The notes beneath the pieces are model-generated. The model made no database searches and was not told the DNA's origin. It saw nothing but the letters and a program-made list of their open reading frames with translations. A DNA stretch of 64,000 nucleotides. It comes from a virus. The stretch lies in the IMG/VR virus record IMGVR_UViG_3300027280_000002, positions 1 through 64,000 of that record; one strand, given 5' to 3'. This document shows, piece after piece, positions 2,852-60,300 of this stretch. Every line of letters begins with the position of its first letter. Positions within the stretch are counted from its first letter, which is position 1. The position numbers and the translations under genes were made by a program.

Positions 2852-3199
2852 ATGGTTACATACAAATGGAATTGCAAAACAGTAGACGTACACCCTCAAG
2901 AAGAAGGTGAAGCAGATGTAGTGTATAATGTACACTGGATATTAACAGCTAGTTCAACTCAACAAAAACCTGATTCTGGAGGAATGCCTTATACAGCTAG
3001 CAGTATAGGAACACAGATTTTATCTTTAAATAAAAGTAGTACATTTATACCATTTGAAGATCTAACTAACGAAACAGTTGTTGAATGGACCAAAGCTGCT
3101 ATAGGTGAAGAACAAGTGGCTGCTCTTGAACTTAGTTTAGAAAAAGAAATAGCAGCTATTATAACTCCAACTAGTGTTGTTCGTACAATCGGAGAGTAA
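2852..3199 (+). CDS. Conserved small phage protein typically found next to tail fibres
   Basis: Pattern YKW..VD...VVYNVHW...FIPFEDLT..TVVEW; A-rich start context. Confidence 0.6.
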   Translation: MVTYKWNCKTVDVHPQEEGEADVVYNVHWILTASSTQQKPDSGGMPYTASSIGTQILSLNKSSTFIPFEDLTNETVVEWTKAAIGEEQVAALELSLEKEIAAIITPTSVVRTIGE

Positions 3200-6100
3200 T
3201 TAGTTTATTGACTTCTTTAATAACATCAGAAGATTTAATTTGAGTATGACATTCGAACTGTCTTTCTGTACCCTTATGTAAAGGGCACCAGTTCCAATCA
3301 CCTTTATCAAATTTAAATTCAGCTTTGTTCCAACATCCGTTGCACACTGCTGGATTTGTTATTCTGTGACATTTAAATTCATGATCTTCTGAGGTAAAGT
3401 TAGATATCATTATTACTTGTTTTTCAAGGGCCCAAGCTAACCAACTTAGTCCACTAGATAATCCTATAAAGAACTCACTCTGTCTTATACAATCAATTGT
3501 ATACTCAATAGATGTATCTGATATTTTTTCACAATTATCAAAAGGGTTATCTTCTATAGAAGTGTTAATTATTTTGTAACCTTCTTTGTGTAAAAAGTTT
3601 ATTACATCTTGCCAGCCTTCTCTGGTCCAAAACTTACAACCTGATGTAGAATTAGTAGCTATAGTGACATACTCCTGACCTTCTATAACATTATTAAAGT
3701 TAGATTTAATTTTAGGAGTGAGTTCTTTATATTCTAAACCTAATATATTTGTAGCTGTTTGTTGTAATGGAATTGTGTTTGGTAATTGAGGTTCTTTATT
3801 ATTATCATAGAACCAACCTATCTTGTACATAGCGTAGACATCAGCTACGTCTGATCCTGGCTTAACAAACTCTAAACTTGGATACACATCTTCGAATAAA
3901 AAGTTTTTAAATGTACTGACAGTCACCGTACATTTGTGTTTCTGCTGAAACTCTAAAACATAAGGAATCCATGCAATAGAATCACCTAGAGATGAACTAT
4001 CAAAGGAAATATATACTTTCTTTCCTTCTAAGTTTAACTTCTCATCTAATATAAGTAAGTTGTCTTTATATATTACTGTCCGCCAATCAACGTAATAGGA
4101 TCTATCTAATTTTACCCAATTGTTTACACCTATAACATTATCATAAACTAACTCAGCACCATTATACATCTCTATCTTAAACTTACTTTCAGTAGTTCCT
4201 TTTATATCTATGTATGGACCTAATGCAAAGTCACGATATATATTATAGTTTAATACTTTAGAATGTTTAATCTTCTTAGTCTCTAAAACTTTTGTATAGA
4301 AATCAACATGATTTTTAGTAAAGTTTGAAATACCACTATCTTTACTTACACTCTTTACATCATGAGAGTTGTTTAGCATTGTTTCTAGTTGACTTTTTAT
4401 ATTGACACTGTCTATGTCAGTGATATAGGGAGTAAACATATTTTCATATTGAGGTAGATTTCTTGCAAGGATTGGTAAATGCCAGCTAATTGCTTCTCTA
4501 AGTACTAAAGGGTTGCATTCCCAAGTAGAATTAAACATAAACACATCTGCAGCTAACATAAATTTGTCAACATCATCTCTTTCTCCCCAAACAGTTACAT
4601 TGTTAGGTAAGTCTACCATTAATGGGCCCCAATAGTCTTGAAAGTTACCAGCTTGGTTACCTACAAAATGAAATTCTACATTTGGAAGTTCTCTTGCTAG
4701 AGATATTCCCTCTCCTTGATTCTTACCTTTTGTCCATAATCCAACATTTAAAACATGTTGCTTAGTTACATCTAAGTCTAATTCAAATTTAGCATTTAAC
4801 TTAGATTGCCAATCAAATATTTTTGGATCTATGGGATACTCTATTACTTTCTTTAAAGATTTTGAATTGGAAAAAGTAGTTAAATGATAAGGAGTACAGA
4901 AAGCATAACCATCAGGATGATACACCTTTTCTACGTCTGGTTTAAATGATACATTATGACAGGTTTCAACTATCTTATAAGATCTACAGTTACAATACAA
5001 AGAGTCTACTAATTTTTTATCATCTAAACATTCAGACATTTCATCTATATGTACTAGATCTATACGATTGTCCTTTATGATTTTTTGTAAGTCTGATTCT
5101 CCCTCCCCTAAGGTAAAAAAGTTTGAAACAATATCTTTTATTTTATTCTTTTGTACAACATAGTCATTGCTATAATTTTTATGTTCTACTACAAAGATCT
5201 CGTATTCATATTTGAGTGCTTCTATTCTCTTTAAAAGAAATGCAGGCATGCCACCAGTAGAAAGATGGGGTGCTAAAAATAAAATCCTACGTTTAAATTG
5301 ATTCATTGTTGCTTCCATAAACTTTGGACGCTTTTCTCCATGTAATGCTAATAGTTCTTCTTTTTTAGCAGGTAACCTTACCCACTCATCTAAGTATTGA
5401 GTCTCTCCAGTAAAAGGTAAATCATGTGTATCTACAAATTTGCTATAGTTCATGTACATATAAGGTAAACCTTCAGTAATTTCATGATGCCAAAGTAATA
5501 TATTAGCTAAGGTTTCTTCATGATATGGTGCATAGTATTGAGGGTTCTTTAACACTTTGGGGTGATTGCACATCCACTCCCATTCATCTAAGAAATCCAT
5601 ACAAAGATTTGATGCTACGAAATAGCCTGTTTGATGGTAAGATGATCGATTAGATTGATCTATACCAAATAACTCACATGCTGGATGCTCTAAACTTTTA
5701 TGTAACTCTTCTTTTGTTTCTACTCCTCCTCTTCTATTAATAAATAGATAATCATATATACCTTTTACAAAATATGGGTTACTGGATGTATTAGGAAAAT
5801 AGCTAAATATTGAATCTATATAAGGGGTGACTACTGTATCTGAGTCAATGTAGGCAATAGTGTCAGCATAATTATTTAAAGCATGTTTAACAATAGACGG
5901 CCTTTGAATAAGTAACTTGTACACTCTACTATCGTTACGATCTATGTAGTCAGTTTGTTTAATAGTGGATCCTGTATAGGTCCATTTATGTGTAATTGTA
6001 GCACCTTCTACGTCTCGATTATCATTTAATAGATATACTATAACAGGAAGTTTACTAACTTGATTTATAGACTTAACTGCAGCAGATACAGTATGATAAT

Positions 6101-6644
6101 ATGAACTATTTGCATATAAAACATATGCCTTTTCCATCTTCTCCTTTTTATAAATATAGTATCCGTAGTATTGATTAGAGTATATAGAAACAAGTTTAGG
6201 GTATCGACTTTTCATTACCTCAGGAGTTAAGTCAACTTGGTGATGTGTTTCATAAATGTTACCTTCATGCTCACCTTGTTCCATTTTATAAGGAACAGCT
6301 ACTAAACATTCTTTTCCTAAATCAATTATTTTTTCAATTAGATCCACTGCTTCTTTCTCAGGTATGTGTTCTAAAACATCTCCTAGAATAATAAAGTCAT
6401 AATCTTTTATACTAAAGTTTAATATGTCTTCTACATATACGTTATCATACTTCTCAAGAAGGTCATACTTAGCTATATACGGTTCATATATTTCTACAGC
6501 ATCTATGTGATAGCCAGATTCACGAAGTAAGTTTGAGTAAGTTCCAACTCCAGGACCTACATCAAGTACTCTTTTGTGTGTTGGAATGTTATCTTTTACC
6601 CAGTTAGTAACATCATTCTTAAAAAACTCAAAGCTATATGGCAT
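3171..6644 (-). CDS. Four-domain fusion: class I SAM methyltransferase + GT-A glycosyltransferase + GT4 (GT-B) + Aah/TibC-type heptosyltransferase
   Basis: VLDVGPGVG and ILGDVLEH (MTase); YIDSD (DxD); HLSTGG, NVGLWTKGKNQ and STWECNPLVLREA (GT4); SLGDSIAW, FIGLSSGLSWLAWA and CNGCW..WCP..FEC (BAHT/GT9-like). ATG at 6644 preferred over TTG at 6665. Confidence 0.85.
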   Translation of the reverse strand: MPYSFEFFKNDVTNWVKDNIPTHKRVLDVGPGVGTYSNLLRESGYHIDAVEIYEPYIAKYDLLEKYDNVYVEDILNFSIKDYDFIILGDVLEHIPEKEAVDLIEKIIDLGKECLVAVPYKMEQGEHEGNIYETHHQVDLTPEVMKSRYPKLVSIYSNQYYGYYIYKKEKMEKAYVLYANSSYYHTVSAAVKSINQVSKLPVIVYLLNDNRDVEGATITHKWTYTGSTIKQTDYIDRNDSRVYKLLIQRPSIVKHALNNYADTIAYIDSDTVVTPYIDSIFSYFPNTSSNPYFVKGIYDYLFINRRGGVETKEELHKSLEHPACELFGIDQSNRSSYHQTGYFVASNLCMDFLDEWEWMCNHPKVLKNPQYYAPYHEETLANILLWHHEITEGLPYMYMNYSKFVDTHDLPFTGETQYLDEWVRLPAKKEELLALHGEKRPKFMEATMNQFKRRILFLAPHLSTGGMPAFLLKRIEALKYEYEIFVVEHKNYSNDYVVQKNKIKDIVSNFFTLGEGESDLQKIIKDNRIDLVHIDEMSECLDDKKLVDSLYCNCRSYKIVETCHNVSFKPDVEKVYHPDGYAFCTPYHLTTFSNSKSLKKVIEYPIDPKIFDWQSKLNAKFELDLDVTKQHVLNVGLWTKGKNQGEGISLARELPNVEFHFVGNQAGNFQDYWGPLMVDLPNNVTVWGERDDVDKFMLAADVFMFNSTWECNPLVLREAISWHLPILARNLPQYENMFTPYITDIDSVNIKSQLETMLNNSHDVKSVSKDSGISNFTKNHVDFYTKVLETKKIKHSKVLNYNIYRDFALGPYIDIKGTTESKFKIEMYNGAELVYDNVIGVNNWVKLDRSYYVDWRTVIYKDNLLILDEKLNLEGKKVYISFDSSSLGDSIAWIPYVLEFQQKHKCTVTVSTFKNFLFEDVYPSLEFVKPGSDVADVYAMYKIGWFYDNNKEPQLPNTIPLQQTATNILGLEYKELTPKIKSNFNNVIEGQEYVTIATNSTSGCKFWTREGWQDVINFLHKEGYKIINTSIEDNPFDNCEKISDTSIEYTIDCIRQSEFFIGLSSGLSWLAWALEKQVIMISNFTSEDHEFKCHRITNPAVCNGCWNKAEFKFDKGDWNWCPLHKGTERQFECHTQIKSSDVIKEVNKLITLRLYEQH

Positions 6645-6662
6645 ACTATTTGATTTTAATAA

Positions 6663-6670
6663 CAAATATA
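6663..6670 (-). promoter_or_regulatory. Bacteroidota-type -7 promoter element (TATATTTG) for the large glycosyltransferase
   Basis: Matches TAnnTTTG about 20 nt upstream of the ATG at 6644. Confidence 0.65.
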
Positions 6671-6832: not shown

Positions 6833-7153
6833 ATGTCTATAACAACTTTTCAACAACAAGTTAAAACTGAATTACACAGCATGGATCAAAGATTATCCGA
6901 TCTAGAGGACAAGATGACCTCTATCGACACAAAACTATCTCAAGTTGTGGATGCAATATTAGGAAACTCATTAACCAAAGCTGGTGGGTTTGTTAGTGAC
7001 ATTGAAGAACTTAAAGATAAAATTAAAATATTAGAAGAGCAACTAATCGCTCAAGAAGAGTTTAAAAAGAAATTTTCTTGGACTGTTGGAATAATTACTG
7101 CTGTCGCTTTTATAGCTCAATACGTTATAAACTTCTATTCTAAAATAAAATAA
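6833..7153 (+). CDS. Coiled-coil protein with C-terminal TM helix (holin/antiholin-like)
   Basis: Heptad repeats and TM segment WTVGIITAVAFIAQYVI; first gene of the lysis cluster. Confidence 0.55.
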   Translation: MSITTFQQQVKTELHSMDQRLSDLEDKMTSIDTKLSQVVDAILGNSLTKAGGFVSDIEELKDKIKILEEQLIAQEEFKKKFSWTVGIITAVAFIAQYVINFYSKIK

Positions 7154-7154
7154 C

Positions 7155-7349
7155 ATGAGTACTAAAGAAAAACTAGATAATATCTTAAAAAAATGGATTA
7201 GTAGAAAGCTTACGGTTTTTGTTGTAGCTTCTTCTGCACTGTTCTCAGGTGTATTAACTTCTACTGATTGGGTGATAGTTGCTACGGCATACATATCAAT
7301 TCAAGGGGTTAGTGACATTGTTGAAAGGTTATTTAAATTAAAGAAATAG
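7155..7349 (+). CDS. Holin (two TM segments)
   Basis: 64 aa; SRKL followed by two hydrophobic segments and a basic tail; directly upstream of the amidase. Confidence 0.65.
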   Translation: MSTKEKLDNILKKWISRKLTVFVVASSALFSGVLTSTDWVIVATAYISIQGVSDIVERLFKLKK

Positions 7350-7780
7350 TGCGAAAAATTGATAAAATTATTGTACATTGTTCAGCAACACGTAAAGGTA
7401 AACACTTTGATGTTGAGGAAATTAGAAGATGGCATGTTGAAGGTAGGGGTTGGAAAGACATTGGTTACCACTACTTAATTTATATCGATGGAAGTATACA
7501 CAAGGGTAGAGAATTAAATGTACAAGGTGCTCACGTTCGTGGAGAAAATAAAAACAGTGTTGGAATTTGTTACATTGGAGGTATGGATAAAGAAGGTTTT
7601 CTACCTGAAGACACTAGAACAACAGAACAAGAAGTTTCTCTTGAAATCCTTATTAAGATGCTAATGTGCTCTTATGAGGGAGCAACCTTACATGGACATA
7701 ATGAATTTTCAAACAAAGCATGTCCAAGCTTTGTAGTGGCAGAGGAGTATAAAGATATAATAGAACAATTTAAAAAGTGA
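7349..7780 (+). CDS. Endolysin, N-acetylmuramoyl-L-alanine amidase (T7 lysozyme-like)
   Basis: IIVHCSAT, GWKDIGYHY, GAHVRGEN, GICYIGG, GHNEF..KACPSF; GTG start. Confidence 0.95.
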   Translation: MRKIDKIIVHCSATRKGKHFDVEEIRRWHVEGRGWKDIGYHYLIYIDGSIHKGRELNVQGAHVRGENKNSVGICYIGGMDKEGFLPEDTRTTEQEVSLEILIKMLMCSYEGATLHGHNEFSNKACPSFVVAEEYKDIIEQFKK

Positions 7781-8109
7781 TAGTACTACTTGATATAATA
7801 CGATTTTTTAAAAAGCAATGGTTCAGTGTACTTATTATACTTGTTCTAATTCTTATACAGTATAAGTCTCAAGAAGAATTAATCTCACACAAAGAACAGA
7901 TTAAAGAACTTAGACAAAAGATAGATAAACATAAAACTAAAGGTGTTGAAATACAACTAAAAATTGATAGTCTATCTAATGTAGATCAAGAAGTGATTAC
8001 AAAGATAAAAACCATCAAACAAAAAGAATATGTACAAATTAAAGTGGTTGATAGCTTGCCTGTTAGTAAGCTTCAGCAGTTTTTCACAGATAAGTATCCA
8101 AAAGAATGA
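7777..8109 (+). CDS. Inner-membrane spanin-like protein
   Basis: N-terminal TM helix followed by a coiled coil; follows the endolysin and overlaps the next gene. Confidence 0.6.
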   Translation: MIVLLDIIRFFKKQWFSVLIILVLILIQYKSQEELISHKEQIKELRQKIDKHKTKGVEIQLKIDSLSNVDQEVITKIKTIKQKEYVQIKVVDSLPVSKLQQFFTDKYPKE

Positions 8110-8506
8110 CTCTGTTGTAACATTAAGTGAGGATCAAGCTAGAAGAGTAGTTAAAGATCTTGTACATTATGACTTTTTAAAACAATCTTTTACTGAGTCA
8201 AACAATAGAATAGCTATACTTTTAAAAAAAAGTAGTGAGTTGACTAACTTATTGTATTCAAAAGATGCAATAATATCAACGCAAGAAGATTACATAGCAG
8301 CGCAAGAAGATATAATAAATGCAAAGAAGCCAATAACTCTAGACGGTTATGTGGGTATTCAGACATTTCAAGCATCTTTAATGAATCCTATACTATATAT
8401 TCAAACAACTGTAGATATAGGTAAGTTTACATTAGGGGCAAGAGTATTTGCCCAACCTGAAAATCCAGGAGGTTACGGTTTTGTATTTCAATATAAAATA
8501 TTCTAA
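8030..8506 (+). CDS. Putative outer-membrane spanin-like protein
   Basis: Signal peptide (MYKLKWLIACLLVSFSSFS-Q), coiled coil, and C-terminal amphipathic beta strands ending YKIF. Start is embedded in the upstream gene. Confidence 0.55.
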   Translation: MYKLKWLIACLLVSFSSFSQISIQKNDSVVTLSEDQARRVVKDLVHYDFLKQSFTESNNRIAILLKKSSELTNLLYSKDAIISTQEDYIAAQEDIINAKKPITLDGYVGIQTFQASLMNPILYIQTTVDIGKFTLGARVFAQPENPGGYGFVFQYKIF

Positions 8507-8584: not shown

Positions 8585-8592
8585 TATTTTTG
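8585..8592 (+). promoter_or_regulatory. Bacteroidota-type -7 element (TATTTTTG) heading the poly-Thr peptide / glycosyltransferase operon
   Basis: TAnnTTTG about 20 nt upstream of the ATG at 8612. Confidence 0.55.
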
Positions 8593-8611
8593 TATTATAA
8601 AAACATATATC

Positions 8612-8749
8612 ATGGCAATACCACCAAGACAGCAAGGCTGGGGACAAGTAGAAGTTCTTCTTTGGAATATTTCAAAGCAATTAGAGCGATTGATTCAGGT
8701 GACTGGTGCACAAAACACCACCACCACTACAACAACAGCAGCACCGTAA
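8612..8749 (+). CDS. 45-aa peptide with C-terminal poly-Thr tag (not in ORF track)
   Basis: Manual translation: MAIPPRQQGWGQVEVLLWNISKQLERLIQVTGAQNTTTTTTTAAP*. Promoter and A-rich start lie upstream. Confidence 0.8.
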   Translation: MAIPPRQQGWGQVEVLLWNISKQLERLIQVTGAQNTTTTTTTAAP

Positions 8750-8776
8750 TAGTAAACATAAACCAACAACTACATA

Positions 8777-9796
8777 ATGAAAGATTTAAAATTTATCTGT
8801 GCTCAACCAGACGACACTTACTATACATGGCAAGTTCACATGTGGTTAGAGAGCTTAAAAGAAATAGGACAAATACACAATGCAATCGTATTAGTCTATA
8901 CACCACAGAAAAGACTCTTTAATGATAAATGGGATCAGATAACAAAACTGTATCCAGAAGCTGAGTTTAATTTCTATAAAGATGAACAAGGTGATCTATC
9001 TAATCTTATTGGTATTTATATACCTGTACTAAGACCTTGGTTACTTTGGAAATACTGGTCAGACCGTCCAGAAATGTCAGAACATGCTGTATTTTACTGT
9101 GATTCTGATATACTTTGGACAGATAAATTTAATATTGATGAATACATACAAGATGATGTATGTTATCTTTCAGATACTAATAGTTACATAAACGCTCAGT
9201 ATTTTGATAGTAAAGTGCATCAGGTTTTACCTGAAAAGTTAGAAGAGTATAAAGCTAGAGATGTGCTTTCTGAAATAGGAAGTGTAATAGGCATAAGTAG
9301 ACAACTTGCTGAAGATAATAATGAAAACTCAGGAGGTGCTCAGTATCTTCTTAAAAATGTAGATGTTTCTTTTTGGAGTAAGGTTATGAATGATTGTATA
9401 TTAATCAGGACCTACCTTCAAAAAATAAATAGAGAATTCTTTAAAGATGAAAATGCTGGTTATCAAAGTTGGTGTGCAGATATGTGGTCTGTATTATGGA
9501 ATCTTTGGGTAAAAGATCAAGAAACTAAAGTAATACCAGAAATGGGATTTGCTTGGGGCCCAGATCCATTAACTAAATTGGAGACACATCCTATATACCA
9601 CAATGCTGGCATTGTAGCAACAGAACAAGGTGGATATCCTTGTTTTTATAAAGGTAAATATCACTCAGGGACTAATCCTATGACTGATCCTCACTTAGAT
9701 GTTGTGTTAAACAACGAAAAAAGTATGAAGCATTGTACTGGTTACTATGCTAAAAAATTGAATGAATTAAAAATTAAATATAACCTAATTTACTAA
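8777..9796 (+). CDS. GT-A glycosyltransferase resembling plant HPAT / peptidyl-serine galactosyltransferase (GT95/GT96-like)
   Basis: YYTWQ, YIPVLRPW, FYCDSDIL (DxD) and WCADMW occur in the same order as recalled plant motifs YFDWQ, YVVLNRPW, ILDADMI and WISEMY. Confidence 0.65.
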   Translation: MKDLKFICAQPDDTYYTWQVHMWLESLKEIGQIHNAIVLVYTPQKRLFNDKWDQITKLYPEAEFNFYKDEQGDLSNLIGIYIPVLRPWLLWKYWSDRPEMSEHAVFYCDSDILWTDKFNIDEYIQDDVCYLSDTNSYINAQYFDSKVHQVLPEKLEEYKARDVLSEIGSVIGISRQLAEDNNENSGGAQYLLKNVDVSFWSKVMNDCILIRTYLQKINREFFKDENAGYQSWCADMWSVLWNLWVKDQETKVIPEMGFAWGPDPLTKLETHPIYHNAGIVATEQGGYPCFYKGKYHSGTNPMTDPHLDVVLNNEKSMKHCTGYYAKKLNELKIKYNLIY

Positions 9797-9814
9797 CCCT
9801 TTAAATATAAACAA

Positions 9815-10021
9815 ATGGGAAGCATAGACAAACGTCCATTAAAAGCTTTTGTTAGATTCGATGGATCTGGCAGAGTAGTAGCAGGTAGCTTAATCTTACG
9901 TAGGAAAATACCAAAAGTAGGAAACTGGCAAGAAATTGTAGCATACGAGTGTTGCAATCCAACAACTACTACTACTACTACAGCTGCGCCAACAACCACT
10001 ACCACTACTACAGCTGCGTAA
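9815..10021 (+). CDS. 68-aa protein with duplicated C-terminal poly-Thr tag
   Basis: Ends CCNPTTTTTTTAAPTTTTTTTAA*; A-rich start context. Confidence 0.8.
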   Translation: MGSIDKRPLKAFVRFDGSGRVVAGSLILRRKIPKVGNWQEIVAYECCNPTTTTTTTAAPTTTTTTTAA

Positions 10022-10040
10022 ACTAAATTAACCTATATAT

Positions 10041-10067
10041 CTCAAGGATCCAATTAAGGTCCTTGAG
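10041..10067 (+). terminator. Stem-loop after the poly-Thr/glycosyltransferase operon
   Basis: CTCAAGGA-N11-TCCTTGAG inverted repeat; weak U tract. Confidence 0.45.
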
Positions 10068-10707: not shown

Positions 10708-10890
10708 ATGCCTGTAAAAAAAGCTAAGGGAGGGAAGAAAATGATTAAACGTAAGGATGGATCCTATAGCAAAAGAGGGCTATGGGATAACATCCGTGCG
10801 AATAAAGGTAGTGGTAAAAAGCCCACTAAAGCTATGTTAAAGCAAGAAAAAAAGATTAAAGCTAAGAGTAAGAGGGGCAAGAGAAAATAA
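10708..10890 (+). CDS. Small Lys-rich basic protein
   Basis: 60 aa, very K-rich, GLWDNIRA motif. Confidence 0.75.
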   Translation: MPVKKAKGGKKMIKRKDGSYSKRGLWDNIRANKGSGKKPTKAMLKQEKKIKAKSKRGKRK

Positions 10891-10893
10891 ATT

Positions 10894-11028
10894 ATGAAAG
10901 ATAATAATTATTGTACTACAACAGCCTCACAATGTTCATGTGGACAAAGTCAAGATCCCAATGGTTACTGTGATGGTTCTCACCTACAAGTAAACACTGT
11001 TGAGCATGCCCACATTAAAAAAAGCTAA
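10894..11028 (+). CDS. 44-aa CDGSH-type iron-sulfur mini-protein (not in ORF track)
   Basis: Manual translation: MKDNNYCTTTASQCSCGQSQDPNGYCDGSHLQVNTVEHAHIKKS*. Confidence 0.75.
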   Translation: MKDNNYCTTTASQCSCGQSQDPNGYCDGSHLQVNTVEHAHIKKS

Positions 11029-11191
11029 AAAAGGCACTAAGAGTAAAAACTGGATACAAGGTGTAAATAAGTCTATCAAGAAAAGAGGGACTAAAGGAAA
11101 ATGCACACCAATCACTAAGAAAGGTTGTACCGGTAAAGCTAAAGCTCTTGCAAAGACATTTAAAAAAATGGCTAAAGGTCGCAAGAAATAA
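11006..11191 (+). CDS. Small Lys-rich basic protein
   Basis: MPTLKKAKK...NWIQ...KALAKTFKKM; ATG at 11006. Confidence 0.75.
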   Translation: MPTLKKAKKGTKSKNWIQGVNKSIKKRGTKGKCTPITKKGCTGKAKALAKTFKKMAKGRKK

Positions 11192-11193
11192 TT

Positions 11194-11490
11194 ATGGCTA
11201 GAAAGAAAACAAAAGCAATTCGTAAGACCACTGGTAAAGGTGGTAACTATAGAAAGACTAAGTCTGGTGCTGGTATGACTAAAAAAGGAGTCAAGGCATA
11301 CAGGAAGGCTAATCCTGGCAGTAAACTCAAGACTGCAGTAACAGGAAAAGTTAAAAAGGGAAGCAAGTCAGCAAAAAGACGTAAGTCTTATTGTGCAAGA
11401 AGTTTGGGACAGTTGAAGAAAAGTTCTGCAAAGACTAAAAATGATCCTAATTCTAGAATAAGACAAGCTAGAAGAAGGTGGAAATGTTAA
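11194..11490 (+). CDS. Small basic protein (DUF6321-like)
   Basis: GMTKKGVKAYRKANPGSKLK, RRKSYCARS, DPNSRIRQARRRWKC. Confidence 0.75.
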   Translation: MARKKTKAIRKTTGKGGNYRKTKSGAGMTKKGVKAYRKANPGSKLKTAVTGKVKKGSKSAKRRKSYCARSLGQLKKSSAKTKNDPNSRIRQARRRWKC

Positions 11491-11508
11491 CACTCAAATT
11501 ATATAATT

Positions 11509-11796
11509 ATGATGCGTAAATACAAATCAGGCGGAGCTAAAAAAGCAAAGTCTGGAACTAAAGTAAAAATGGCTAAGTCTGGAACAAAAGCTAAAAAGAT
11601 GGGGTATGGTGGCAAAGCTGCTTCTATGACTCCTCCTAAATCTAAAATGAAGGCTAAGTCTGGTTCTACTCTTAAAAAGGCACCAGCAGGTTCAAAAGGA
11701 AAGGGAATGAGATCTCTTCCTAAAGCTGTTCGTAATAAGATAGGGTTTGCTAAGAAAGGTAGTAAGACACGTAAGTGTAAGTCAGGTTGTAAGTAA
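11509..11796 (+). CDS. Histone H1-like Lys/Ala/Gly-rich basic protein
   Basis: Repeated AKSG units; no acidic residues. Confidence 0.75.
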   Translation: MMRKYKSGGAKKAKSGTKVKMAKSGTKAKKMGYGGKAASMTPPKSKMKAKSGSTLKKAPAGSKGKGMRSLPKAVRNKIGFAKKGSKTRKCKSGCK

Positions 11797-12061: not shown

Positions 12062-12706
12062 CTATTTTTTTAATAATCTTCTTTTCCAAGTTGATACGTT
12101 AGACGCATGTTCTAAATAATACTTCCACTCTTCAGGTATACAACAATCATCTATATACCAAGGTCTGTGCTGTATACAATAAGGTCTGTCTAATCTTATT
12201 GCATCATAAGAAAATGGCATATTAGCTCTATATAATGCAAATGTAGTATCTACATGAGCATCCCATCCCAAATCAATTTTATTCTCCCAGTACTTAGCCT
12301 CATGTGCATATGATTGTTTACCTATATCTGTATTGGGTAAGTCTTCTATTTCTAATGAGAACCCTATTTTAGGGGAACCTGGTTGGTTTATAGCATGTAA
12401 CATTACATCTAACCAATCATCAGGAACATTATCATATATACAATCTGTATCCGCTACAATAAAATAACCTTTACGTAAATGTTTATACTTAGAAGCCCAT
12501 GCTGAGTAAGGACCCTCATTCTTTGCATAGTGAATTTCTTCAGTAATTGTTTTATAAAATTCTAACAATGGAGGATAGGTAGATTCTTGATCAAGTATAT
12601 GAATCTCTACTCTAGGCTCTTTTCTTAAGAACTCTAATGTATTTTTAAGAGTAGTCAAAAGATTCCTATTAATTAGTAGTGCCTTTATTTTGCTAGTTGT
12701 GTACAA
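12062..12706 (-). CDS. GT2-like glycosyltransferase
   Basis: IHILDQESTYPPL, FIVADTD (DxD), AHVDTTFALY. Confidence 0.75.
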   Translation of the reverse strand: MYTTSKIKALLINRNLLTTLKNTLEFLRKEPRVEIHILDQESTYPPLLEFYKTITEEIHYAKNEGPYSAWASKYKHLRKGYFIVADTDCIYDNVPDDWLDVMLHAINQPGSPKIGFSLEIEDLPNTDIGKQSYAHEAKYWENKIDLGWDAHVDTTFALYRANMPFSYDAIRLDRPYCIQHRPWYIDDCCIPEEWKYYLEHASNVSTWKRRLLKK

Positions 12707-13265
12707 ATAAAACTTTATTTATTTTAAACATTTCTTTTTCTGTAAACTTCTTTTTAAACTGTTCTACAAACCAACCGTCAGCATCATATTTTACTCCAAG
12801 ATCTATTTGCTGAGCTAAGTCTCTTCTAGTAGCAAAAGCTCCCATATCTATTTGATTAGTGTGAGGGTGACATTTAAAGTATTCATAATTATAATGAGAG
12901 TGTACCATATCCCAATAAATAAACCCAGGAGAGTTAGCTGTTGCTGTTCGTAATTCAGCAACAAAGTTTGGTGTATAGTAGTTATCATCTCCAGTCATTA
13001 TTATATATTGAGCATCTGACATTTGTTTACCACGCTCTCTTAATGTATGTCCCCAATCATTATACCGCTTATCCATAAAGGTGCAATATATTCTAGGGTC
13101 ATTGAAACTCTTTACTATATCAGATATTCTTTCACTTTCTGTATCATCTATAACCACATGAGCGCTCCAGTCAGCATCTGTTTGAGCTGTAAGAGAAGTT
13201 AGCATGCAGATTAAAGGCTCATGCCTATTATATGTAGGAATAATAAACTCAACTAGAGCTGACAT
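12693..13265 (-). CDS. GT2 glycosyltransferase
   Basis: FIIPTYNR, VVIDD, MTGDDNYY, ADGWF. Confidence 0.85.
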   Translation of the reverse strand: MSALVEFIIPTYNRHEPLICMLTSLTAQTDADWSAHVVIDDTESERISDIVKSFNDPRIYCTFMDKRYNDWGHTLRERGKQMSDAQYIIMTGDDNYYTPNFVAELRTATANSPGFIYWDMVHSHYNYEYFKCHPHTNQIDMGAFATRRDLAQQIDLGVKYDADGWFVEQFKKKFTEKEMFKINKVLFVHN

Positions 13266-14055
13266 AATCTTTTAGCATTTGTTTATAATCCTGTTTCCAT
13301 GAAGGCACTAAATGTACATCACCTGTAGGTATCTTACCAGCTTTACGCTGTGATTCTACATGAGCACTATGACGTTTAATGATATCAGGTCTTGATCCAT
13401 CATCTGTACCCATACCGGATTGATGATAACCTCTACCTCCCCACATATAAAACCACGAAGCTTCACTGTCCGGCATCTTAACATCTACTTTACCACCTAA
13501 AGCATGGATTCTATTAGTTAAGGTCATGTCACCTCCTGCGTTCTCTAGAGGACTTTTACCTATTCTTTCCCATACATCTTTACTATATACAATACCAGAG
13601 TTACCTACACCACTTATAGCTGTAATAGATGGCTCATTGTAGAACACACCTGTTTCCCAGTGAATAATATTAGTATCCTTCTTCCAGTGTCTAGCTACGT
13701 TGTTTAGATGATTAGGTAAGGCCACATCATCATCATCCCATACAGCAATAAGCTCCCCTTTGCATCTTTCAATAGCATAGTTCTCTTTCTCACCTATAAG
13801 AGAAAAAGTTTCATCAAGATTATATATTGTGACTTGTGGATGAGGATAGTGTAACTTCTGAAGAGGGTAATCATTGACTATTATTAGCTCGCACTTATCT
13901 TTTGGATAGTCTTGAATAAGGAAACTATGTAAAGATTCTACTAATAAATCTGTTCTTCCATAAGTTATACACTTACAAGAAATAAAAGGCAACTCTTTGT
14001 TTTCTATAACATGAGCTGCCTCTGTTCCTGATATTATTTCATAACTCATTACCAA
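13249..14055 (-). CDS. GT2 glycosyltransferase
   Basis: ISCKCITYGR, SFLIQDYP, ELIIVND, AVWDDDD. Confidence 0.85.
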   Translation of the reverse strand: MVMSYEIISGTEAAHVIENKELPFISCKCITYGRTDLLVESLHSFLIQDYPKDKCELIIVNDYPLQKLHYPHPQVTIYNLDETFSLIGEKENYAIERCKGELIAVWDDDDVALPNHLNNVARHWKKDTNIIHWETGVFYNEPSITAISGVGNSGIVYSKDVWERIGKSPLENAGGDMTLTNRIHALGGKVDVKMPDSEASWFYMWGGRGYHQSGMGTDDGSRPDIIKRHSAHVESQRKAGKIPTGDVHLVPSWKQDYKQMLKDYVSSS

Positions 14056-14896: not shown

Positions 14897-15312
14897 AAGA
14901 GATTATGTTTTTTTAATAAGTGGTTACGTCTTTTATTAATTTCATCATACTTGTAGATATCACTCTCTACATTAGCATGTTCGTCAACTGTCAAAAGTAT
15001 AATATTTTCCTCATCCATCCTAATATCAGGATATTTATTTTTAGGTAATATGTGATGAAAATAAATACTAAGTGCTTCAGATCCTAAATAGTCATTACTT
15101 AATTCAGAATTATGTGGTCTTTCCTTCCATATTTTTTTAAAGAATAAATGGTCTTCATTAGGAGAAGACTCCCCCTTAGATTTATGTGATCTAAGGGTTC
15201 GTTTAGGCCTATTTGCTGCATGAGTAGTGGCTTGTACAGCTAGCGGCTTTCTTCTCTTATGTTGAAAACAATATTCAGATTCTGAATTCTTTCCACAGAT
15301 TATACATTTCAC
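14893..15312 (-). CDS. Zn-finger / HNH-like protein
   Basis: CIICG...YCFQH N-terminus; FHHILPK...NIILLT..EH. Confidence 0.55.
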   Translation of the reverse strand: MKCIICGKNSESEYCFQHKRRKPLAVQATTHAANRPKRTLRSHKSKGESSPNEDHLFFKKIWKERPHNSELSNDYLGSEALSIYFHHILPKNKYPDIRMDEENIILLTVDEHANVESDIYKYDEINKRRNHLLKKHNLL

Positions 15313-16478
15313 AGTTCGGATGTATCAAATAAATCTGGAGATAATGTTTTAGGACCAACAACTTCCATAGATTTTGCTTTATTATAATGAATACCATCAT
15401 TACCGTTCTGACCTATTACATTCATTCTTTCGTCATTTTCTATAATTTCTAAAGGAGCAACTTCTTCATTTGAGTCTTCTGTACCTTTAATTGCATTTAT
15501 AATCTTATTCTTAAGACTATCGTAAAACTCTCGATCGTTACGAACCATATCTTTAAATTCTTCAAGATCATGCTTAACACCATCAACTGTCATAGTTTTA
15601 CCATACTTTCTACCTAACTCATAGTCATTAAGTAATTGCATCATTTCTCCTACTTTGTCGATACCTACACCATATAGAACTTCAAAGTCTGATAATACAT
15701 AAGGAGGATTCATTTTATTCTTTATGGCTCTCACTTTAGTAATATTACCATACACTTCTCCAGCTTCTTTAGCTAATGACCTACTAACTTCTATTCTTAC
15801 ATCAGAATAAAACTTTAGTGCATGTCCACCTTGTGTAGTTGTAGGGTTACCAAACATAACACCTATCTTCTCTCGGTATTGAGATACTACTATAACACAT
15901 GTCTTAGTATTATGTGCCATAGATTTAATCTTAGGATATGCACTACTGTTAAGTCGTGCTTTCTTACCTATTGCATGCTCACCAACAGCACCATCTAATA
16001 CTGCTTTAGGTATAAGTGATGAATCAGAATCTATAATGATTAGATCTACATCACCTGTTTGCATTAACTCTACTGCAATGTTGAAACCCTCTTCACCGCA
16101 AGAAGGTTGTGCAATCATCATAGTGTTAGTATCCACACCTAATGAATTAAAGTAATTTGTATCAACAGCATGTTCACCGTCAATATATACCACTTTACCT
16201 CCTTTAGATTGGCAACTAGCTACAGCATGTCCACATATAGTAGACTTACCTGTACCTTCCCAACCCATGAGTTCATACATTTTACCTTTTACAAATCCTC
16301 CTACGCCCAATGTTCTCCAGTCAAAACCTATTGATCCTGTACTAATTGCATCGTACGTCCCTTCAGACTTACTTCCTAATGACAATACAGTACCTTTACC
16401 GTATTGCTTGTTTAATCTTTCTAATGCATCCTCGAATGAGTTTGCACCATCTGTCGCTTTTGTGACTTTTTTTGCCAT
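15309..16478 (-). CDS. recA: RecA recombinase
   Basis: ISTGS, GWEGTGKST (Walker A), YIDGEHA, GNPTTTQGGHALKFYSDVR, KNKMNPPY. Confidence 0.95.
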   Translation of the reverse strand: MAKKVTKATDGANSFEDALERLNKQYGKGTVLSLGSKSEGTYDAISTGSIGFDWRTLGVGGFVKGKMYELMGWEGTGKSTICGHAVASCQSKGGKVVYIDGEHAVDTNYFNSLGVDTNTMMIAQPSCGEEGFNIAVELMQTGDVDLIIIDSDSSLIPKAVLDGAVGEHAIGKKARLNSSAYPKIKSMAHNTKTCVIVVSQYREKIGVMFGNPTTTQGGHALKFYSDVRIEVSRSLAKEAGEVYGNITKVRAIKNKMNPPYVLSDFEVLYGVGIDKVGEMMQLLNDYELGRKYGKTMTVDGVKHDLEEFKDMVRNDREFYDSLKNKIINAIKGTEDSNEEVAPLEIIENDERMNVIGQNGNDGIHYNKAKSMEVVGPKTLSPDLFDTSEL

Positions 16479-27882: not shown

Positions 27883-28017
27883 TTAATCTTCCCATTGTTC
27901 GATTGCTGTTAATTTTATATTAGATGATAAACACTGCGCACAGTCAGTTTCTTTTGTGTTGCTAATAAAGTCATCTTTACAGTCATTACAATAGTATTCG
28001 TATTCAAATTTTCTCAT
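27883..28017 (-). CDS. 44-aa zinc-ribbon protein (FmdB-like; not in ORF track)
   Basis: MRKFEYEYYCNDCKDDF...DCAQCLSSNI; ATGA-coupled to the epimerase. Confidence 0.65.
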   Translation of the reverse strand: MRKFEYEYYCNDCKDDFISNTKETDCAQCLSSNIKLTAIEQWED

Positions 28018-28892
28018 ATTATTGATTTTATCCAATTAATTAAACTTACTTGTGGTGTCCAACCCAAGTCTTTCTTTATTTTACTTATGTTGCTTAAAGA
28101 TCTCTTAGCTTCTTTTCTAGCAGGTATAAATTTTATATTATTACTAAATGCTTTAGCAATATCTATGATCTTTACCTCCTGACCAGAACCAACGTTCCAA
28201 GTTCCTTTAGTTCCTATTGCAGCTATGATAGCATCAACTACATCTTTAACATATACAAAGTCTCTGGTCTGTTGACCATCTCCTGTTACTGTTAGCTCAA
28301 GATTATTCTTAAATTGATTCAGAAAGATAGGTACAGCTGATAGGTATCCACCTTCATTGAGCTGTCTCTCTCCAAAAACATTAAAGAATCTTAATACTGC
28401 TACAGAAACATCATCTGGTACTGTTTTACAGAGTGCTTCCATCATATACTTAGATGTTGCATATGGATTCAATGGGTCTAAATCACTATTTTCTGATAGA
28501 GGAAAGCTTCTTGAATTACCATACACAGCAGCTGTAGAAGCTACAACTATCTCTTTACAACCACACTGTTTAATAGCCCATTCAAATAAAAGAGCTGAAC
28601 CATCAACAATTTGATCATGGTACTTCTGTTTATTATTTAAACTTTCTTCTACAGACACAGGCGCTGCTAAATGAATGAGTGTATCAAACTGCATATCAGG
28701 TAAATGTCCCCACATAGCATTACCTACCTCGTAGATTATTACTAAAGGTTGAGGCTTTAATGGAAATAAGTTCTTAACCTTTCCAGTGCTAAAGTTATCA
28801 AGGATTATTATCTCTTGCCCTAGCTTCTGTAGTTGTTCACATAAATGACTTCCAATAAAACCTGCTCCTCCTGTTATTAATACCCTACTCAT
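28014..28892 (-). CDS. NAD-dependent nucleotide-sugar epimerase/dehydratase (extended SDR)
   Basis: VLITGGAGFIGSH, HLAA, ASTAAVYG, YATSK, LRFFNVFG, TRDFVYV. Confidence 0.93.
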   Translation of the reverse strand: MSRVLITGGAGFIGSHLCEQLQKLGQEIIILDNFSTGKVKNLFPLKPQPLVIIYEVGNAMWGHLPDMQFDTLIHLAAPVSVEESLNNKQKYHDQIVDGSALLFEWAIKQCGCKEIVVASTAAVYGNSRSFPLSENSDLDPLNPYATSKYMMEALCKTVPDDVSVAVLRFFNVFGERQLNEGGYLSAVPIFLNQFKNNLELTVTGDGQQTRDFVYVKDVVDAIIAAIGTKGTWNVGSGQEVKIIDIAKAFSNNIKFIPARKEAKRSLSNISKIKKDLGWTPQVSLINWIKSII

Positions 28893-29131
28893 TAGTTTAT
28901 ACATAATGCACTTGTTTCTACATCTATCTCATCTGGGTTTATGTTCATCACTCCTGTAACATATGCATTCTCTAATCCTTCTGTATTCATAATTGATGGA
29001 CTGTAGAACACTTTCTGATAAGAGTTACCCTCTGCATCTTGAGAATAGATTACTTCTAATTCAGCTATCTCAGGATTTTTCTTTAACAACTGTGTAAGGT
29101 TGTTTACATATTCATTAACTTTCATAATCAT
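28892..29131 (-). CDS. Hypothetical protein
   Basis: VIYSQDAEGNSY motif, common in phage ORFs. Confidence 0.7.
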   Translation of the reverse strand: MIMKVNEYVNNLTQLLKKNPEIAELEVIYSQDAEGNSYQKVFYSPSIMNTEGLENAYVTGVMNINPDEIDVETSALCIN

Positions 29132-55404: not shown

Positions 55405-56541
55405 ATGAGTACATTCGCATTAACCACGTTATTCGTGGTGCCAGTAGGTCAGACAACTCTGCCTAGCACTGGTTCGACTCAAGACCTTACAAAAGGTCAA
55501 GTAGGATTTTTCAATAGCTCCTATGCTACAGTAAACGCTGGAACAATAGCTGCTTCTCCGTATTTCTACGTAGCACAAGGTAGAGAAAACACCTATTTAC
55601 AAGGATCAAAAAGATCTGACAAAATTAAAGGATGCCCAACAGCTGGTGCTTCTTGCAACTCTAACGTTACAGAATGGTACAAAGCTTCTGGTTGTGATAC
55701 TGCTGCTAACCAAATTACTGACGTTACAGACTTTAAAGTACAATGTGGTGAAATAGTAACATTAACACTACGTGCTTTTTCTAGTTATATTAATACTTTA
55801 TACTTCAACGGATTTACACGTTCAGTAACCGTACAAGCTCCATGTTGTGAATGTGGAGGTGATGTATGTACTGATGTTGACACTAACGCATTAATCAACT
55901 CTTTAATTGCTAAGTTAAACCAAAGCGCTCCTGGAGATAATCCAGATAACGTATCTTTTAAAAGTTTCTTTACTTTTGAAAATGTTGGTGGAACAATACT
56001 AAGAATCCACGGTAAACCATTAACTAAATATGGACAACCATGTGACGTTGCTGCATTCCCATTTGAATATGATAGAATGTACTTCAACACATTTATATAT
56101 GATGGACCAGCTACTACTGCTGATTTTATTGTTGCTGATTCTTGTAACATTGTTGCAACCTCTACCATAACTCAGACTTCTACATATCCTTCAGGACTTT
56201 CTGCTGAATGGAAACAAGCAGAAATTAATTACTATAGCTACCAAGCTGGGTATTTAAAATCTCTATATAGAATGGGTGGATACAACGAGAACTTTGAGTC
56301 TTATGTGACTGAAGGAACTGTATATGATAGCTACTATATTCGTTTTAATGAATATGATAAAGGAGCATACCAATGGGGTGACTATATCCATCAAGATTCT
56401 ATCGTGATGATTGCTGTCCCAAATGAAGCGTCAGTTGCTGGTATTGCTACTGCTGTAGAGGCTGTCTTAGTTGGAGCTTTAGGGCCTGTTGTTGATAACA
56501 ATGAGTGTATCACAACTACAACTACTACAACTGCTGCTTAA
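55405..56541 (+). CDS. Putative auxiliary capsid/decoration protein with C-terminal poly-Thr tag
   Basis: Beta-rich and Cys-rich; capsid-like codon bias; ends NECITTTTTTTAA*. Confidence 0.65.
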   Translation: MSTFALTTLFVVPVGQTTLPSTGSTQDLTKGQVGFFNSSYATVNAGTIAASPYFYVAQGRENTYLQGSKRSDKIKGCPTAGASCNSNVTEWYKASGCDTAANQITDVTDFKVQCGEIVTLTLRAFSSYINTLYFNGFTRSVTVQAPCCECGGDVCTDVDTNALINSLIAKLNQSAPGDNPDNVSFKSFFTFENVGGTILRIHGKPLTKYGQPCDVAAFPFEYDRMYFNTFIYDGPATTADFIVADSCNIVATSTITQTSTYPSGLSAEWKQAEINYYSYQAGYLKSLYRMGGYNENFESYVTEGTVYDSYYIRFNEYDKGAYQWGDYIHQDSIVMIAVPNEASVAGIATAVEAVLVGALGPVVDNNECITTTTTTTAA

Positions 56542-57317: not shown

Positions 57318-60300
57318 ATGTTATCACCAAGACTAACGAATTGTAAAGAATGTGCAAACATTCCTGATTTACTTAGAAAAATAGATTGTAAATTAGCAGA
57401 GCTAGGAAACAACTTATACAACAATGTTGTATTTATGTTGAACAGACCTATTGCTGTTAGTCAGATTTCAGAACTGTTAGTATACAAACGTGTACTAACT
57501 TTTCGTTATTGTGATACACATTATGCATCAGGATGTCCGGAGGTAAGTACAGAAGATATTGCAAGCAAGGTTATTCGTCTTACTGCTGGTTGTGTTTCAT
57601 TATGTAATGAACCTACAGTGTGTGAGATTACAACATGTGCTATAATTCCTTGTCCTAATCCAACAACAACAACTACAAGTACCTCTAGTACCAGCACTAC
57701 TACAACCACTAGCACCACAGCAACACCAACCACCACCACTACTACAACGATAACCCCAGATTGTAGAATAGAAGGATGCTTTGATATTATAGCTTTATCT
57801 ACTACAACTACTTCAACATCTTCAACATCTTCGACTACTACTACTAGTACAACTGTTGTACCGTTTGATTGTGCAGAGCCATTTAACTTAAGTTCTCCTG
57901 AAGCCTTTCCTAATGCTATCACTGGAAATGGAACTAAAGTATTGAGTAATGGAGTTTTGCTAACTACATCGTATACTCCAAATACGTTTAACCAACCTCC
58001 TATCTATGTAGCTGGCGTCCCAGGCACAACAGAAGTATGTAATGGAGCATATGTAACTTCTCAGTCTGGTGGACAAGGAACATTGTCAATGCGTGGAGGT
58101 TCAACTGTTGTAATGGACTTTAATCCTCCAATAAATGCTATAGCGCTTGTCACTCAGGGTTATGGTTCTAGTAAAGATCCATCAGCGCAAGAGACTGTGG
58201 TTATAACATCTACTGATGTAATTGTTGCTACTGAATTAACAGCATGTGGTGACTATGCAACAACACAAATAAGTCAAAATGAAATTAATTTAACTGGATC
58301 ACAAGCTCTTTATCCAAACTATTCTGCAGGAGTTACAGCAATTTCACCAATTAGTGGAGGTATAAGTCAATTACAAATTACAATTAACCCACCTGCTGAT
58401 GCATTAGCTGGTATTGGTTTTGATTTTTATGTATGTCCTGGCAGTAGTCCAATAACTACGACAACAACTAGCACGTCTAGTACAACTACTACTACAACAA
58501 GTAGTTCAACTAGTACAACTACTAGTACGACTACAATTGTACCAACAACAACTACAACTACAACAATTGCTGCATGTGTGGATTGTATTCCTAGTGATGT
58601 AACAATTGGAACACAAACCTGGAGTAAGTGTAATTTAAATGTTGATACATATTTAAATGGTGATCCAATTCCAGAAGTAACAGACCCAAGTGCTTGGGTA
58701 GGATTAACTACAGGAGCTTGGTGTTACCATAGCAATGATTCTGCAAATGAACCAACTTATGGAAAATTATATAATTGGTTTGCTGTTAATGATCCAAGAG
58801 GGTTAGCTCCTGCAGGTTATCATATTCCAACTAATGATGAACTAATTACATTAATTAATTATATTGACCCAGCTTCATCAGGAGGTGCAACTGTACCAAA
58901 TAATGCAGGAGGTCCATTAAAAGAAGTACAATTCTGTCATTGGGATGCACCTAATACTGCAGCAACAAATAGTTCAGGTTTCACAGGTCTTCCAGGAGGT
59001 TTTCGTGAGCCTCTCTCTGGGGTGTTTGGTGGTATTAATGAGGGTGGTACATGGTGGAGTAGTACAGACGAGATAGTAGGGCCTGATGCTTTTGCTTTTA
59101 GTTTATACAATAATCAGACTTGGGCGTATAGAAATGACTGGAATCAAAATCACGGTTATTCAGTTCGTCTAATAAAAGATACAGGAACTACAACAACCAC
59201 CACTTTAGCACCAACAACCACTACAACTAGTACATCTAGTACATCAACTACAACTAGTACAACAACTGTTGCTCCTACTACAACTAGTACAACAACTGTT
59301 GCTCCTACTACCACTACTACAACTACAGTGGTGGCACCAACAACAACTACAACCACAACGGTAACACCTACTACAACTACAACAACAACTATTACACCAC
59401 TAGTTGGATGTCTAGAGTTTGACTATTTAAGTCTTATAGTTAGTAGCGATTGGATTCTAGATCCACCTACTGACTCTCTATTTGCTCGAGCAGATTATTT
59501 TACAGGACCAACTACAAACACAACAAGTTATACCAACTGGTCTCAAGTTCCAAATACCAACTATGATGTAGTATTTAATATAGGAGGAGTAGACTATACA
59601 GCAGTGTATCAATTTATCAATGTTGGAACTGGAGGAGTTACTGTTCCTTATGGTAAATTTAGTGTTAACAGTGTCAACTTCTCAGCTATGTCTACATTCC
59701 AATTTTCAAAGATAGATGCAAATGGTAATGACTTATCATCAATACTTTCTACCTTTGATCATACAACTGGAGATGGTTATAAAGTTACTGCATATGGAGA
59801 TTGTACAACACCAACAACAACAACTACAACCACTGTAGCTCCAACAACAACAACTACAACCACCTTACCTGTTTTCCTTTGTACAGATCCACTACTAACA
59901 GTATCTTTACCTGATGGAATTGTAGGAGATCCACTGAATGGAAGTGTTGTATATGATGGACTCAATCTAGCTATAACTGGTTACACTTATGGTGGGGGTA
60001 ATACAACTGTATATATTGCTGGAACAGTTGCTTATACGCTTGCATTTATTGTTCCTTCAGGATATAGTAACTCAGGATCTGCTACTGGTTGCGCTGTTGC
60101 AGCAACTGGTACAACACCAACAACTACAACTACAACAACTGTTGCTCCTACTACTACAACTACAACCACTAGTGCAAAAAGCTACGATATTAATTGGCAA
60201 GTTGATGGAGGAGGAAATGGATTTAAAGAAGCAGAATTACAATTATTTAAAAATGGAGCGAGTGTAGTAACTCAAGTTATTACTAATGGCACGCCTTCGG

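Follow-up and report, generated by a model that had tools for sequence, protein, structure and literature searches.

A GT8-like phage glycosyltransferase encoded between two poly-threonine-tailed mini-proteins: a probable initiator of O-glycosylation on particle proteins

Why should a phage carry a gene for a glycosyltransferase between two very short genes whose products both end in runs of threonine? The question is raised by a three-gene cassette at positions 8585-10067 of a 64,000-nucleotide stretch of viral DNA, positions 1 to 64,000 of IMG/VR record IMGVR_UViG_3300027280_000002, to which we refer as the window. The record is 111,329 bp long, with a CheckV completeness of 98% and a G+C content of 33%, and DNA near-identical to that of the window phage is found in marine metagenomes from at least 15 studies. 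Our analysis of fold, gene neighbourhood and distribution across phages indicates that the enzyme is probably an initiating peptidyl-Thr O-glycosyltransferase that serves the poly-Thr tracts of particle proteins, those of its two small neighbours included.

All elements of the cassette lie on the + strand. It opens with a promoter-like box, TATTTTTG (8585-8592), situated 19 nt 5' of the first ATG, which presumably represents the Bacteroidota −7 box TAnnTTTG. Among 39 related loci the same box is present in 12, at 19-26 nt 5' of the short gene that lies upstream of the enzyme; most of these have an intergenic gap ahead of that short gene. A scan for sigma-70 promoters on the + strand of the region gave no match. 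There follow an open reading frame (ORF) for a 45-residue protein (8612-8749) that ends ...AQNTTTTTTTAAP, with seven threonines (T7) in a tail NT7AAP; the gene for a 339-residue protein with a DxD motif (8777-9796); and an ORF for a 68-residue protein (9815-10021) that ends ...CCNPTTTTTTTAAPTTTTTTTAA (CCNPT7AAPT7AA), the three being separated by 27 and 18 nt. A terminator-like hairpin (10041-10067) with a 10-bp stem, a 7-nt loop and a T-rich tail completes the cassette, with a folding energy of −18.8 kcal/mol and z = −4.4, none of 200 shuffled sequences being as stable. The original prediction, made from the letters of this DNA, had described these same five elements, and each was recovered in its place, as were, in order, the motifs YYTWQ, YIPVLRPW, FYCDSDIL and WCADMW within ORF 8777-9796. 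Metatranscriptome contigs from three marine runs span the cassette, one of them across the hairpin, although as contigs with possible DNA carry-over they establish neither transcription nor its strand, operon limits or termination; the three genes appear to be co-transcribed. A megablast search with the cassette region against the phage collection returned zero matches.

What kind of enzyme does the central gene encode? A Pfam scan assigns the 339-residue protein to no family, and finds no glycosyltransferase family at E values up to 1, while the protein matches PHROG 4417, whose function is not assigned (E 1.6e-51), its residues 4-329 aligning with positions 1-289 of the 293 in the profile. 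Its family is large, comprising 747 clusters (50% identity) at E 0.001 or better; locus searches with single distant members added three extra loci, a query with P0182 found no relative in viral contigs, and one with P0263 found none in one genome-contig scan. Across 63 aligned members, whose identity to the window protein is 29-47%, D109, D111, Y81, H275 and K292 are invariant, and A277 and G278 are nearly so. The AlphaFold model built on these 63 sequences has a predicted local distance difference test score (pLDDT) of 97.3, no membrane segment is seen in it, and it has the features that define a GT-A fold, a Rossmann-like alpha/beta/alpha architecture with the DxD motif (DSD, residues 109-111) following central strand 104-108. 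Sequence searches of the PDB, with the single protein or with a profile, gave nothing above threshold for the enzyme. The best Foldseek matches of the model in the PDB are WbbM, glycogenin, XXYLT1, alpha-1,3-galactosyltransferase and UGGT (E 1e-6 to 1e-5), and VIA-align, which is independent of Foldseek, places glycogenin first (Z 13.9, root-mean-square deviation (rmsd) 3.9, 237 residues aligned), followed by LgtC (13.8), the Skp1 alpha-galactosyltransferase (13.8), UGGT (13.0) and GlyE (12.7). More than 100 PDB chains reach a Z of 8 or more, the top ones all being GT-A, and in a viral fold library a giant-virus GT8 protein is the nearest outside the enzyme's own family. We take the top matches to be retaining enzymes of the GT8, GT6 and GT24 groups. 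Judged from the model, we regard it as established that the protein is a GT-A glycosyltransferase, probably of the retaining, GT8-like type; the fold and the invariant DxD thus bear out the original reading of this DxD protein as a glycosyltransferase, and the data are best explained by a soluble, cytoplasmic, metal-dependent enzyme from a large, as yet unnamed phage family. Relatives in the family are fused to GT2, GT6, GT7, GT25, GT29, methyltransferase or radical-SAM domains, which suggests that the enzyme domain works in glycan assembly lines.

The comparison with known enzymes shows both likeness and distance. The model resembles the GT8 family of CAZy most closely in fold (glycogenin, LgtC, GlyE; Z 12.7-13.9, 220-237 residues aligned), and in the phage enzymes a DxD motif, a downstream His-x-x-Gly (H275-x-x-G278) and a lysine, K292, are invariant or nearly so, an arrangement that may correspond to the one in GT8. 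Glycogenin and GlyE furthermore act on proteins in the cytoplasm, as the phage enzyme is proposed to do. Sequence identity to GT8 is, on the other hand, about 10%, the phage protein is some 80 residues longer, and in what we take to be the GT8 motif, HxxGxxKPW, the lysine lies about 6 residues after the histidine as against 17 in the phage enzyme, a comparison that is a reading of sequence and not a superposition. The Pfam profile Glyco_transf_8 matches neither the window protein nor any sequence in the scan of the 63 members at E values up to 1.

The original prediction had suggested a plant-type hydroxyproline arabinosyltransferase (HPAT) or peptidyl-serine galactosyltransferase (SGT1/SERGT1), and had proposed a profile search against the HPAT family of Pfam. 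In this search the window protein gave no match to PF23452 (CAZy GT95), falling below the curated threshold of 23.9 bits, and ten homologues from Firmicutes and Actinobacteria phages gave none either. What survives of the plant label is a faint signal: PF23452 weakly matches 3 of the 63 family members (best E 0.012), as the sole Pfam family matching more than one of them, and in one neighbouring ESM-Atlas cluster HPAT is found on 10% of the members. A profile search of a 5.8-billion-protein collection returned close relatives only, without Pfam labels, and no bridge to HPAT, and DUF7164 and HPAT models gave nothing above threshold against the window genome and five phage records. The likeness to plant HPAT (GT95) and SGT1/SERGT1 (GT96) is in the proposed activity, the initiating O-glycosylation of repetitive, hydroxyl-rich peptide tracts; the phage acceptor would be Thr rather than hydroxyproline or Ser, and the phage protein is soluble, without a membrane anchor. 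Another likeness is to A64R of Chlorella virus PBCV-1, a viral GT-A enzyme that glycosylates the virus's own major capsid protein outside the host secretory pathway. Its fold match to the phage enzyme is weaker than that of GT8 (Z 10.8, rmsd 3.4, 190 residues aligned), and it comes from a eukaryotic virus, in whose system, to our knowledge, no poly-Thr tag is involved.

If the enzyme acts on threonine, where are the acceptors? The 111-kb genome holds 37 Thr runs of four or more, all in + strand frames, of which 17 have a length of precisely seven and none exceeds it, and they are confined to seven ORFs of the head/tail module (55-79 kb) and the two mini-proteins; T7 runs lie, for example, at 8717-8737, 9962-10012, 56512-56532 and 57729-60170. 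The runs are encoded by mixed ACN codons and are thus not simple DNA repeats, and they are not due to chance. Candidate acceptors in the window, all on the + strand, are a 378-residue protein of the head/tail module without PHROG or Pfam family, which ends ...ITTTTTTTAA (55405-56541); a 1200-residue appendage protein (57318-60920) with 11 Thr tracts between its domains, most of them of the form T7-x-x-P; the product of a small open frame (62343-62597, stop to stop), which ends ...EQTTTTTTTITP and is the third short one with a T7 tail; and the start of a 925-residue appendage protein with T5 and T7 tracts (62602-64000, continuing to 65367 of the genome). The tracts of the window phage mostly consist of T7, then two residues, then proline (T7-x-x-P). 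Among the relatives of the two mini-proteins, taken from 80 related IMG/VR loci whose enzymes are 64-100% identical, T7 also accounts for 145 of 237 Thr runs, while in Firmicutes phages the run length varies from 5 to 14. The fixed T7 unit, together with the stub-like form of the two mini-proteins, points to a rule of recognition or spacing.

The pairing of enzyme and tract is by no means confined to this phage. Homologues of the enzyme occur in 77 records of the phage collection, in ten organism-name groups, and in 13 of 14 unrelated lineages a protein with a poly-Thr tract, in most cases of the capsid or tail tube, is encoded within 5 kb of the homologue, usually directly upstream. Thr tails are borne by the capsid and tail-tube proteins of Enterococcus phiFL1A and Lacticaseibacillus R3.3, by the capsid/protease and major structural proteins of Lactococcus 1706, by the tail tube of bIL285 (Lactococcus), Clostridium phiCTP1 and Arcanobacterium TPWB06, and by small proteins of Staphylococcus PT94 and Lactobacillus Semele; TTVAP repeats lie near the homologue in Levilactobacillus ENFP1, Thr-linked fibre-like proteins near that of Chryseobacterium MA9V-3 and of two IMG/VR lineages, and a poly-Thr-tailed protein adjoins that of Enterococcus 9183. 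In siphophages the enzyme gene is located inside the head/tail module, directly 3' of the gene for the Thr-tailed capsid or tail-tube protein and away from the lysogeny module. As a separate observation, poly-Thr-rich frames overlap, out of frame, the 3' end of the major capsid gene in Enterococcus 9183 (L096:4770-4892) and, in another frame, that of the major tail gene in Arcanobacterium TPWB06 (L093:4660-4926); programmed frameshifting might add a Thr tail to a fraction of the subunits here, or the gene calls might be wrong.

Does the tail go with the enzyme or with the structural protein that bears it? Homologues of the phiFL1A tail-tube protein occur in Streptococcus, Pediococcus, Lactobacillus and Bacillus phages; in six enzyme-less phages the protein stops just after its ...PGETTGDY... 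core, without a Thr tail, whereas in phiFL1A and R3.3 the tail is appended after that same core. The enzyme-family profile was absent from the enzyme-less control genomes, SPP1 included, and was detected in four positive controls. All six frames of the six enzyme-less genomes (239 kb) contain zero Thr runs of five or more, as against 17 such runs in 11 ORFs of five small enzyme-bearing phages (225 kb), each run no further than 21 residues from the C-terminus. With the window phage added, runs of this length are present in 6/6 carriers of the enzyme and 0/6 non-carriers, a contrast whose one-sided exact p of about 0.001 overstates the evidence, since three of the negative controls are related. 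Furthermore, none of the five small Thr-tailed phages has a detectable GT2 or GT1 domain, in a search for which all 14 control genomes were positive. This leaves the enzyme family as the one recognisable candidate in them for adding the first sugar. The initiating peptidyl-Thr role that had been proposed for the window enzyme fits this distribution, and for the window phage itself we infer it from these small phages.

What, then, are the two small proteins that flank the enzyme? The genes beside it in the 80 related loci fall into two families, A and B. Family A, to which the 45-residue protein belongs, starts with MAIPSRQIGWS..NLLWQISKQLE (module MAIPxRQxGW..LLWxISKQLE); family B, with the 68-residue protein, starts with M..KRPLKAYVRFDGSGRVVAGSLILRRKKPKVGNW.EI.AYECC and has a module of about 48 residues, ..LKAFVRFDGSGRVVAGSLILRRK.PKVGNWQEI.AYECC. 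Both N-terminal modules are under purifying selection, with ratios of non-synonymous to synonymous substitution (dN/dS) of 0.19 for A (69 distinct sequences) and 0.14 for B (101), values that pool the short and the long forms of each family, and both small ORFs are real genes. Short members measure 44-57 residues in A and from 55 to about 100 in B, and in almost all of them a Thr run, trailed by 0-5 further residues, forms the C-terminus. Such headless forms account for 39 of the 83 genes of family A and for about 80 of the 123 of family B. In long members the N-terminal module is followed by a Thr tract or a collagen-like GTS repeat and then by a variable head, which may consist of collagen repeats, tail-fibre PHROGs, LRR, Lcl_C, Laminin_G_3, Fib_succ_major, DUF285 or lectin-like domains; adhesin-like heads are borne by at least 235 longer relatives in family A alone. 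The window genome contains one copy of each module, both headless. In the AlphaFold model of the 68-residue protein (pLDDT 70.5) a three-stranded N-terminal module scores about 81 and the tail is disordered, and a search of the ESM Atlas with this module found only its own kind (score 0.75). A PHROG 33732 'glycosyltransferase' match of the 45-residue protein (E 0.011) was discarded: 0 of the 120 best longer family-A proteins carry a glycosyltransferase domain.

The heads, moreover, appear to be exchangeable. In a relative whose flanks are 99.5% identical, a 273-nt head segment (L004:4185-4457) stands in place of the 54-nt Thr tail of the window (9961-10014), a clean cassette replacement that begins within the Thr-coding tract and indicates that heads are swapped or lost at this tract. 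Another relative has the head phrog_21885 on an A module and on a B module either side of its enzyme gene (L005:2571-2969 and L005:4040-4480); this head has been exchanged between anchors of the two kinds. Modular phage fibres similarly combine a conserved N-terminal anchor with exchangeable receptor-binding heads, and families A and B likewise vary in everything past the linker; unlike such fibres, many of their members are headless and end in the linker. The 45- and 68-residue proteins therefore fit as headless members of two modular appendage or decoration families, built from an N-terminal module, a poly-Thr linker and an exchangeable head, and the earlier suggestion that they decorate the virion as small glycosylated units is plausible.

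Taken together, these observations allow a mechanism to be proposed. During late infection the enzyme would transfer the first sugar from a nucleotide sugar onto Thr hydroxyls of exposed, disordered tracts, the acceptors being the Thr-tailed or Thr-linked proteins of the head/tail module (those starting at 55405, 57318, 62343 and 62602, and others past the window) together with the two mini-proteins. The glycan may then be extended by glycosyltransferases encoded on the − strand, for which a 1164-residue fusion of methyltransferase, GT4-type (Glycos_transf_1) and GT9-like domains (3171-6665) and the products of three consecutive GT2 genes (12062-14055) are possible candidates, and a NAD-dependent nucleoside-diphosphate-sugar epimerase/dehydratase (28014-28904, − strand; Epimerase, E 7.5e-48) might supply the donor. 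The particle would thereby acquire a coat of sugar, to which the headless A and B proteins would contribute stubs bearing glycan only; both the transfer to Thr and the attachment of the mini-proteins to the virion are steps that we presume. General O-glycosylation in Bacteroidota acts in the periplasm. Phage particles are assembled in the cytoplasm, outside its reach, which would explain why the phage brings an enzyme of its own.

Several points weigh against an initiating peptidyl-Thr transferase. The case for transfer to Thr is made from fold and co-occurrence, and the poly-Thr tracts could simply serve as flexible linkers. The window phage encodes at least seven glycosyltransferase domains besides the 339-residue enzyme. 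Lactobacillus LP65, which has the weakest homologue, lacks a Thr tract within 5 kb of it. The control set is small, its three related negatives being Streptococcus prophages, and enzyme and Thr tails could travel together by way of common modules rather than by function. It is also conceivable that the enzyme glycosylates a polymer of the host envelope or the phage DNA, the poly-Thr being mere flexible linkers; LgtC and WbbM, which are among its best fold matches, act on lipopolysaccharide, and secreted Bacteroidota proteins often contain Thr-rich linkers. We consider this quite unlikely, as the siphophage gene directly follows that of a Thr-tailed capsid or tail-tube protein and is not near the lysogeny module, homologous proteins and whole genomes that lack the enzyme also lack Thr tails, and the enzyme model has no membrane segment. 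The further glycosyltransferase domains of the window speak instead for an enzyme that extends a glycan begun by another of the phage's glycosyltransferases, as do the structural neighbours GlyE and XXYLT1, which are extending enzymes. This role is very unlikely in our judgement, since five small Thr-tailed phages have the enzyme family as their only detectable glycosyltransferase, and fused relatives sometimes place the enzyme domain N-terminal to a second glycosyltransferase domain.

Other alternatives concern the mini-proteins. The original prediction had likened the locus to a cluster for ribosomally synthesized and post-translationally modified peptides (RiPPs), in which the 45- and 68-residue products, each a leader with a poly-Thr core, would be precursors that become free glycopeptides. 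The arrangement does invite this comparison, with an enzyme between two short conserved peptides that have variable Thr-rich ends, apparently in one transcription unit, and many relatives keep the peptide-enzyme-peptide layout. The supposed leaders are, however, the N-terminal modules of hundreds of longer, adhesin-like proteins with collagen, LRR, Laminin_G_3, Fib_succ_major or Lcl_C heads, and the mini-proteins thus do not fit as RiPP precursors. There is no protease, exporter, transporter or immunity gene between the promoter box and the hairpin, and elsewhere the enzyme family accompanies capsid or tail-tube proteins that have no such leader, so that we have abandoned the precursor idea as highly improbable. 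That the mini-ORFs are instead decaying remnants without a role of their own, left when recombination in ACN-rich Thr tracts deleted their heads, would agree with the 273-nt head of the 99.5%-identical relative and with the free gain and loss of heads among related loci. Remnants of this kind would hardly be expected to be as frequent as the headless forms are in both families, to end almost uniformly in a Thr run plus 0-5 residues, or to belong to families whose N-terminal modules have a pooled dN/dS of 0.14-0.19, and we regard decay as unlikely.

With the enzyme retained as the probable initiator on particle proteins, a broader proposal can be put forward more tentatively, and we would hold it as a possibility rather than as an expectation. 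A short poly-Thr tract, T7-x-x-P in the window phage, may be a portable, encoded glycosylation tag that is read by one soluble enzyme family in phages of Bacteroidota, Firmicutes and Actinobacteria, and the A and B stubs may be glycan-only decorations, giving these marine phages a mucin-like coat that could be swapped for heads by recombination in the Thr tracts.

The surroundings of the cassette are as follows. Directly upstream is an Amidase_2 endolysin gene (7349-7780, E 1.9e-11), flanked by small ORFs of membrane type or with lipoprotein-type signals (6833-8506) that by eye are holin or spanin candidates, so that the cassette looks, by eye, as if it sits behind a lysis cassette. Just 3' of it, at 10708-11796, four small (60-98 residues) and extremely Lys/Arg-rich proteins are encoded in a row, of which one has a match to DUF6321 (E 5.9e-12); a role in binding DNA or inside the virion is possible for the group. 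A full-length RecA homologue is encoded at 15309-16478 on the − strand (Pfam RecA, E 4e-83).

Glycosylation of the virion has its nearest functional precedent in mycobacteriophages, on which Freeman et al. 2023 (Cell Host Microbe 31:1216) reportedly described such modification. According to three papers that cite it (PMC12363180, PMC13313380, PMC12582341), glycosyltransferases of the mycobacteriophages Che8, Corndog and Myrna modify the phages' own capsid and tail proteins in the cytoplasm. This is the only case of experimentally demonstrated phage particle glycosylation that we found in the literature, and its hosts are Actinobacteria. In the literature on poly-threonine tails, on glycosylated capsid or tail proteins of Firmicutes phages and on HPAT-like phage enzymes we found no paper with the pairing of enzyme and tag, nor do the papers searched mention a poly-Thr tag that a single dedicated family reads in phages of three host phyla. 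Most likely the system proposed here is a form of phage particle glycosylation that uses a new enzyme family and a tag both short and portable.

If this is true, many phages probably bear sugar coats that nobody has sought. The candidates would include easily grown dairy, gut and clinical Firmicutes phages (Lactococcus 1706, bIL285, Enterococcus phiFL1A, and phages of Lactobacillus and Staphylococcus) as well as abundant marine Bacteroidota phages, and the hypothesis can thus be tested directly in culturable phages. A system of one enzyme and one short tag would, in addition, serve as a tool for glycosylating proteins in the cytoplasm. For the phages themselves, such coats could affect adsorption, stability, adherence to mucus and immune recognition.

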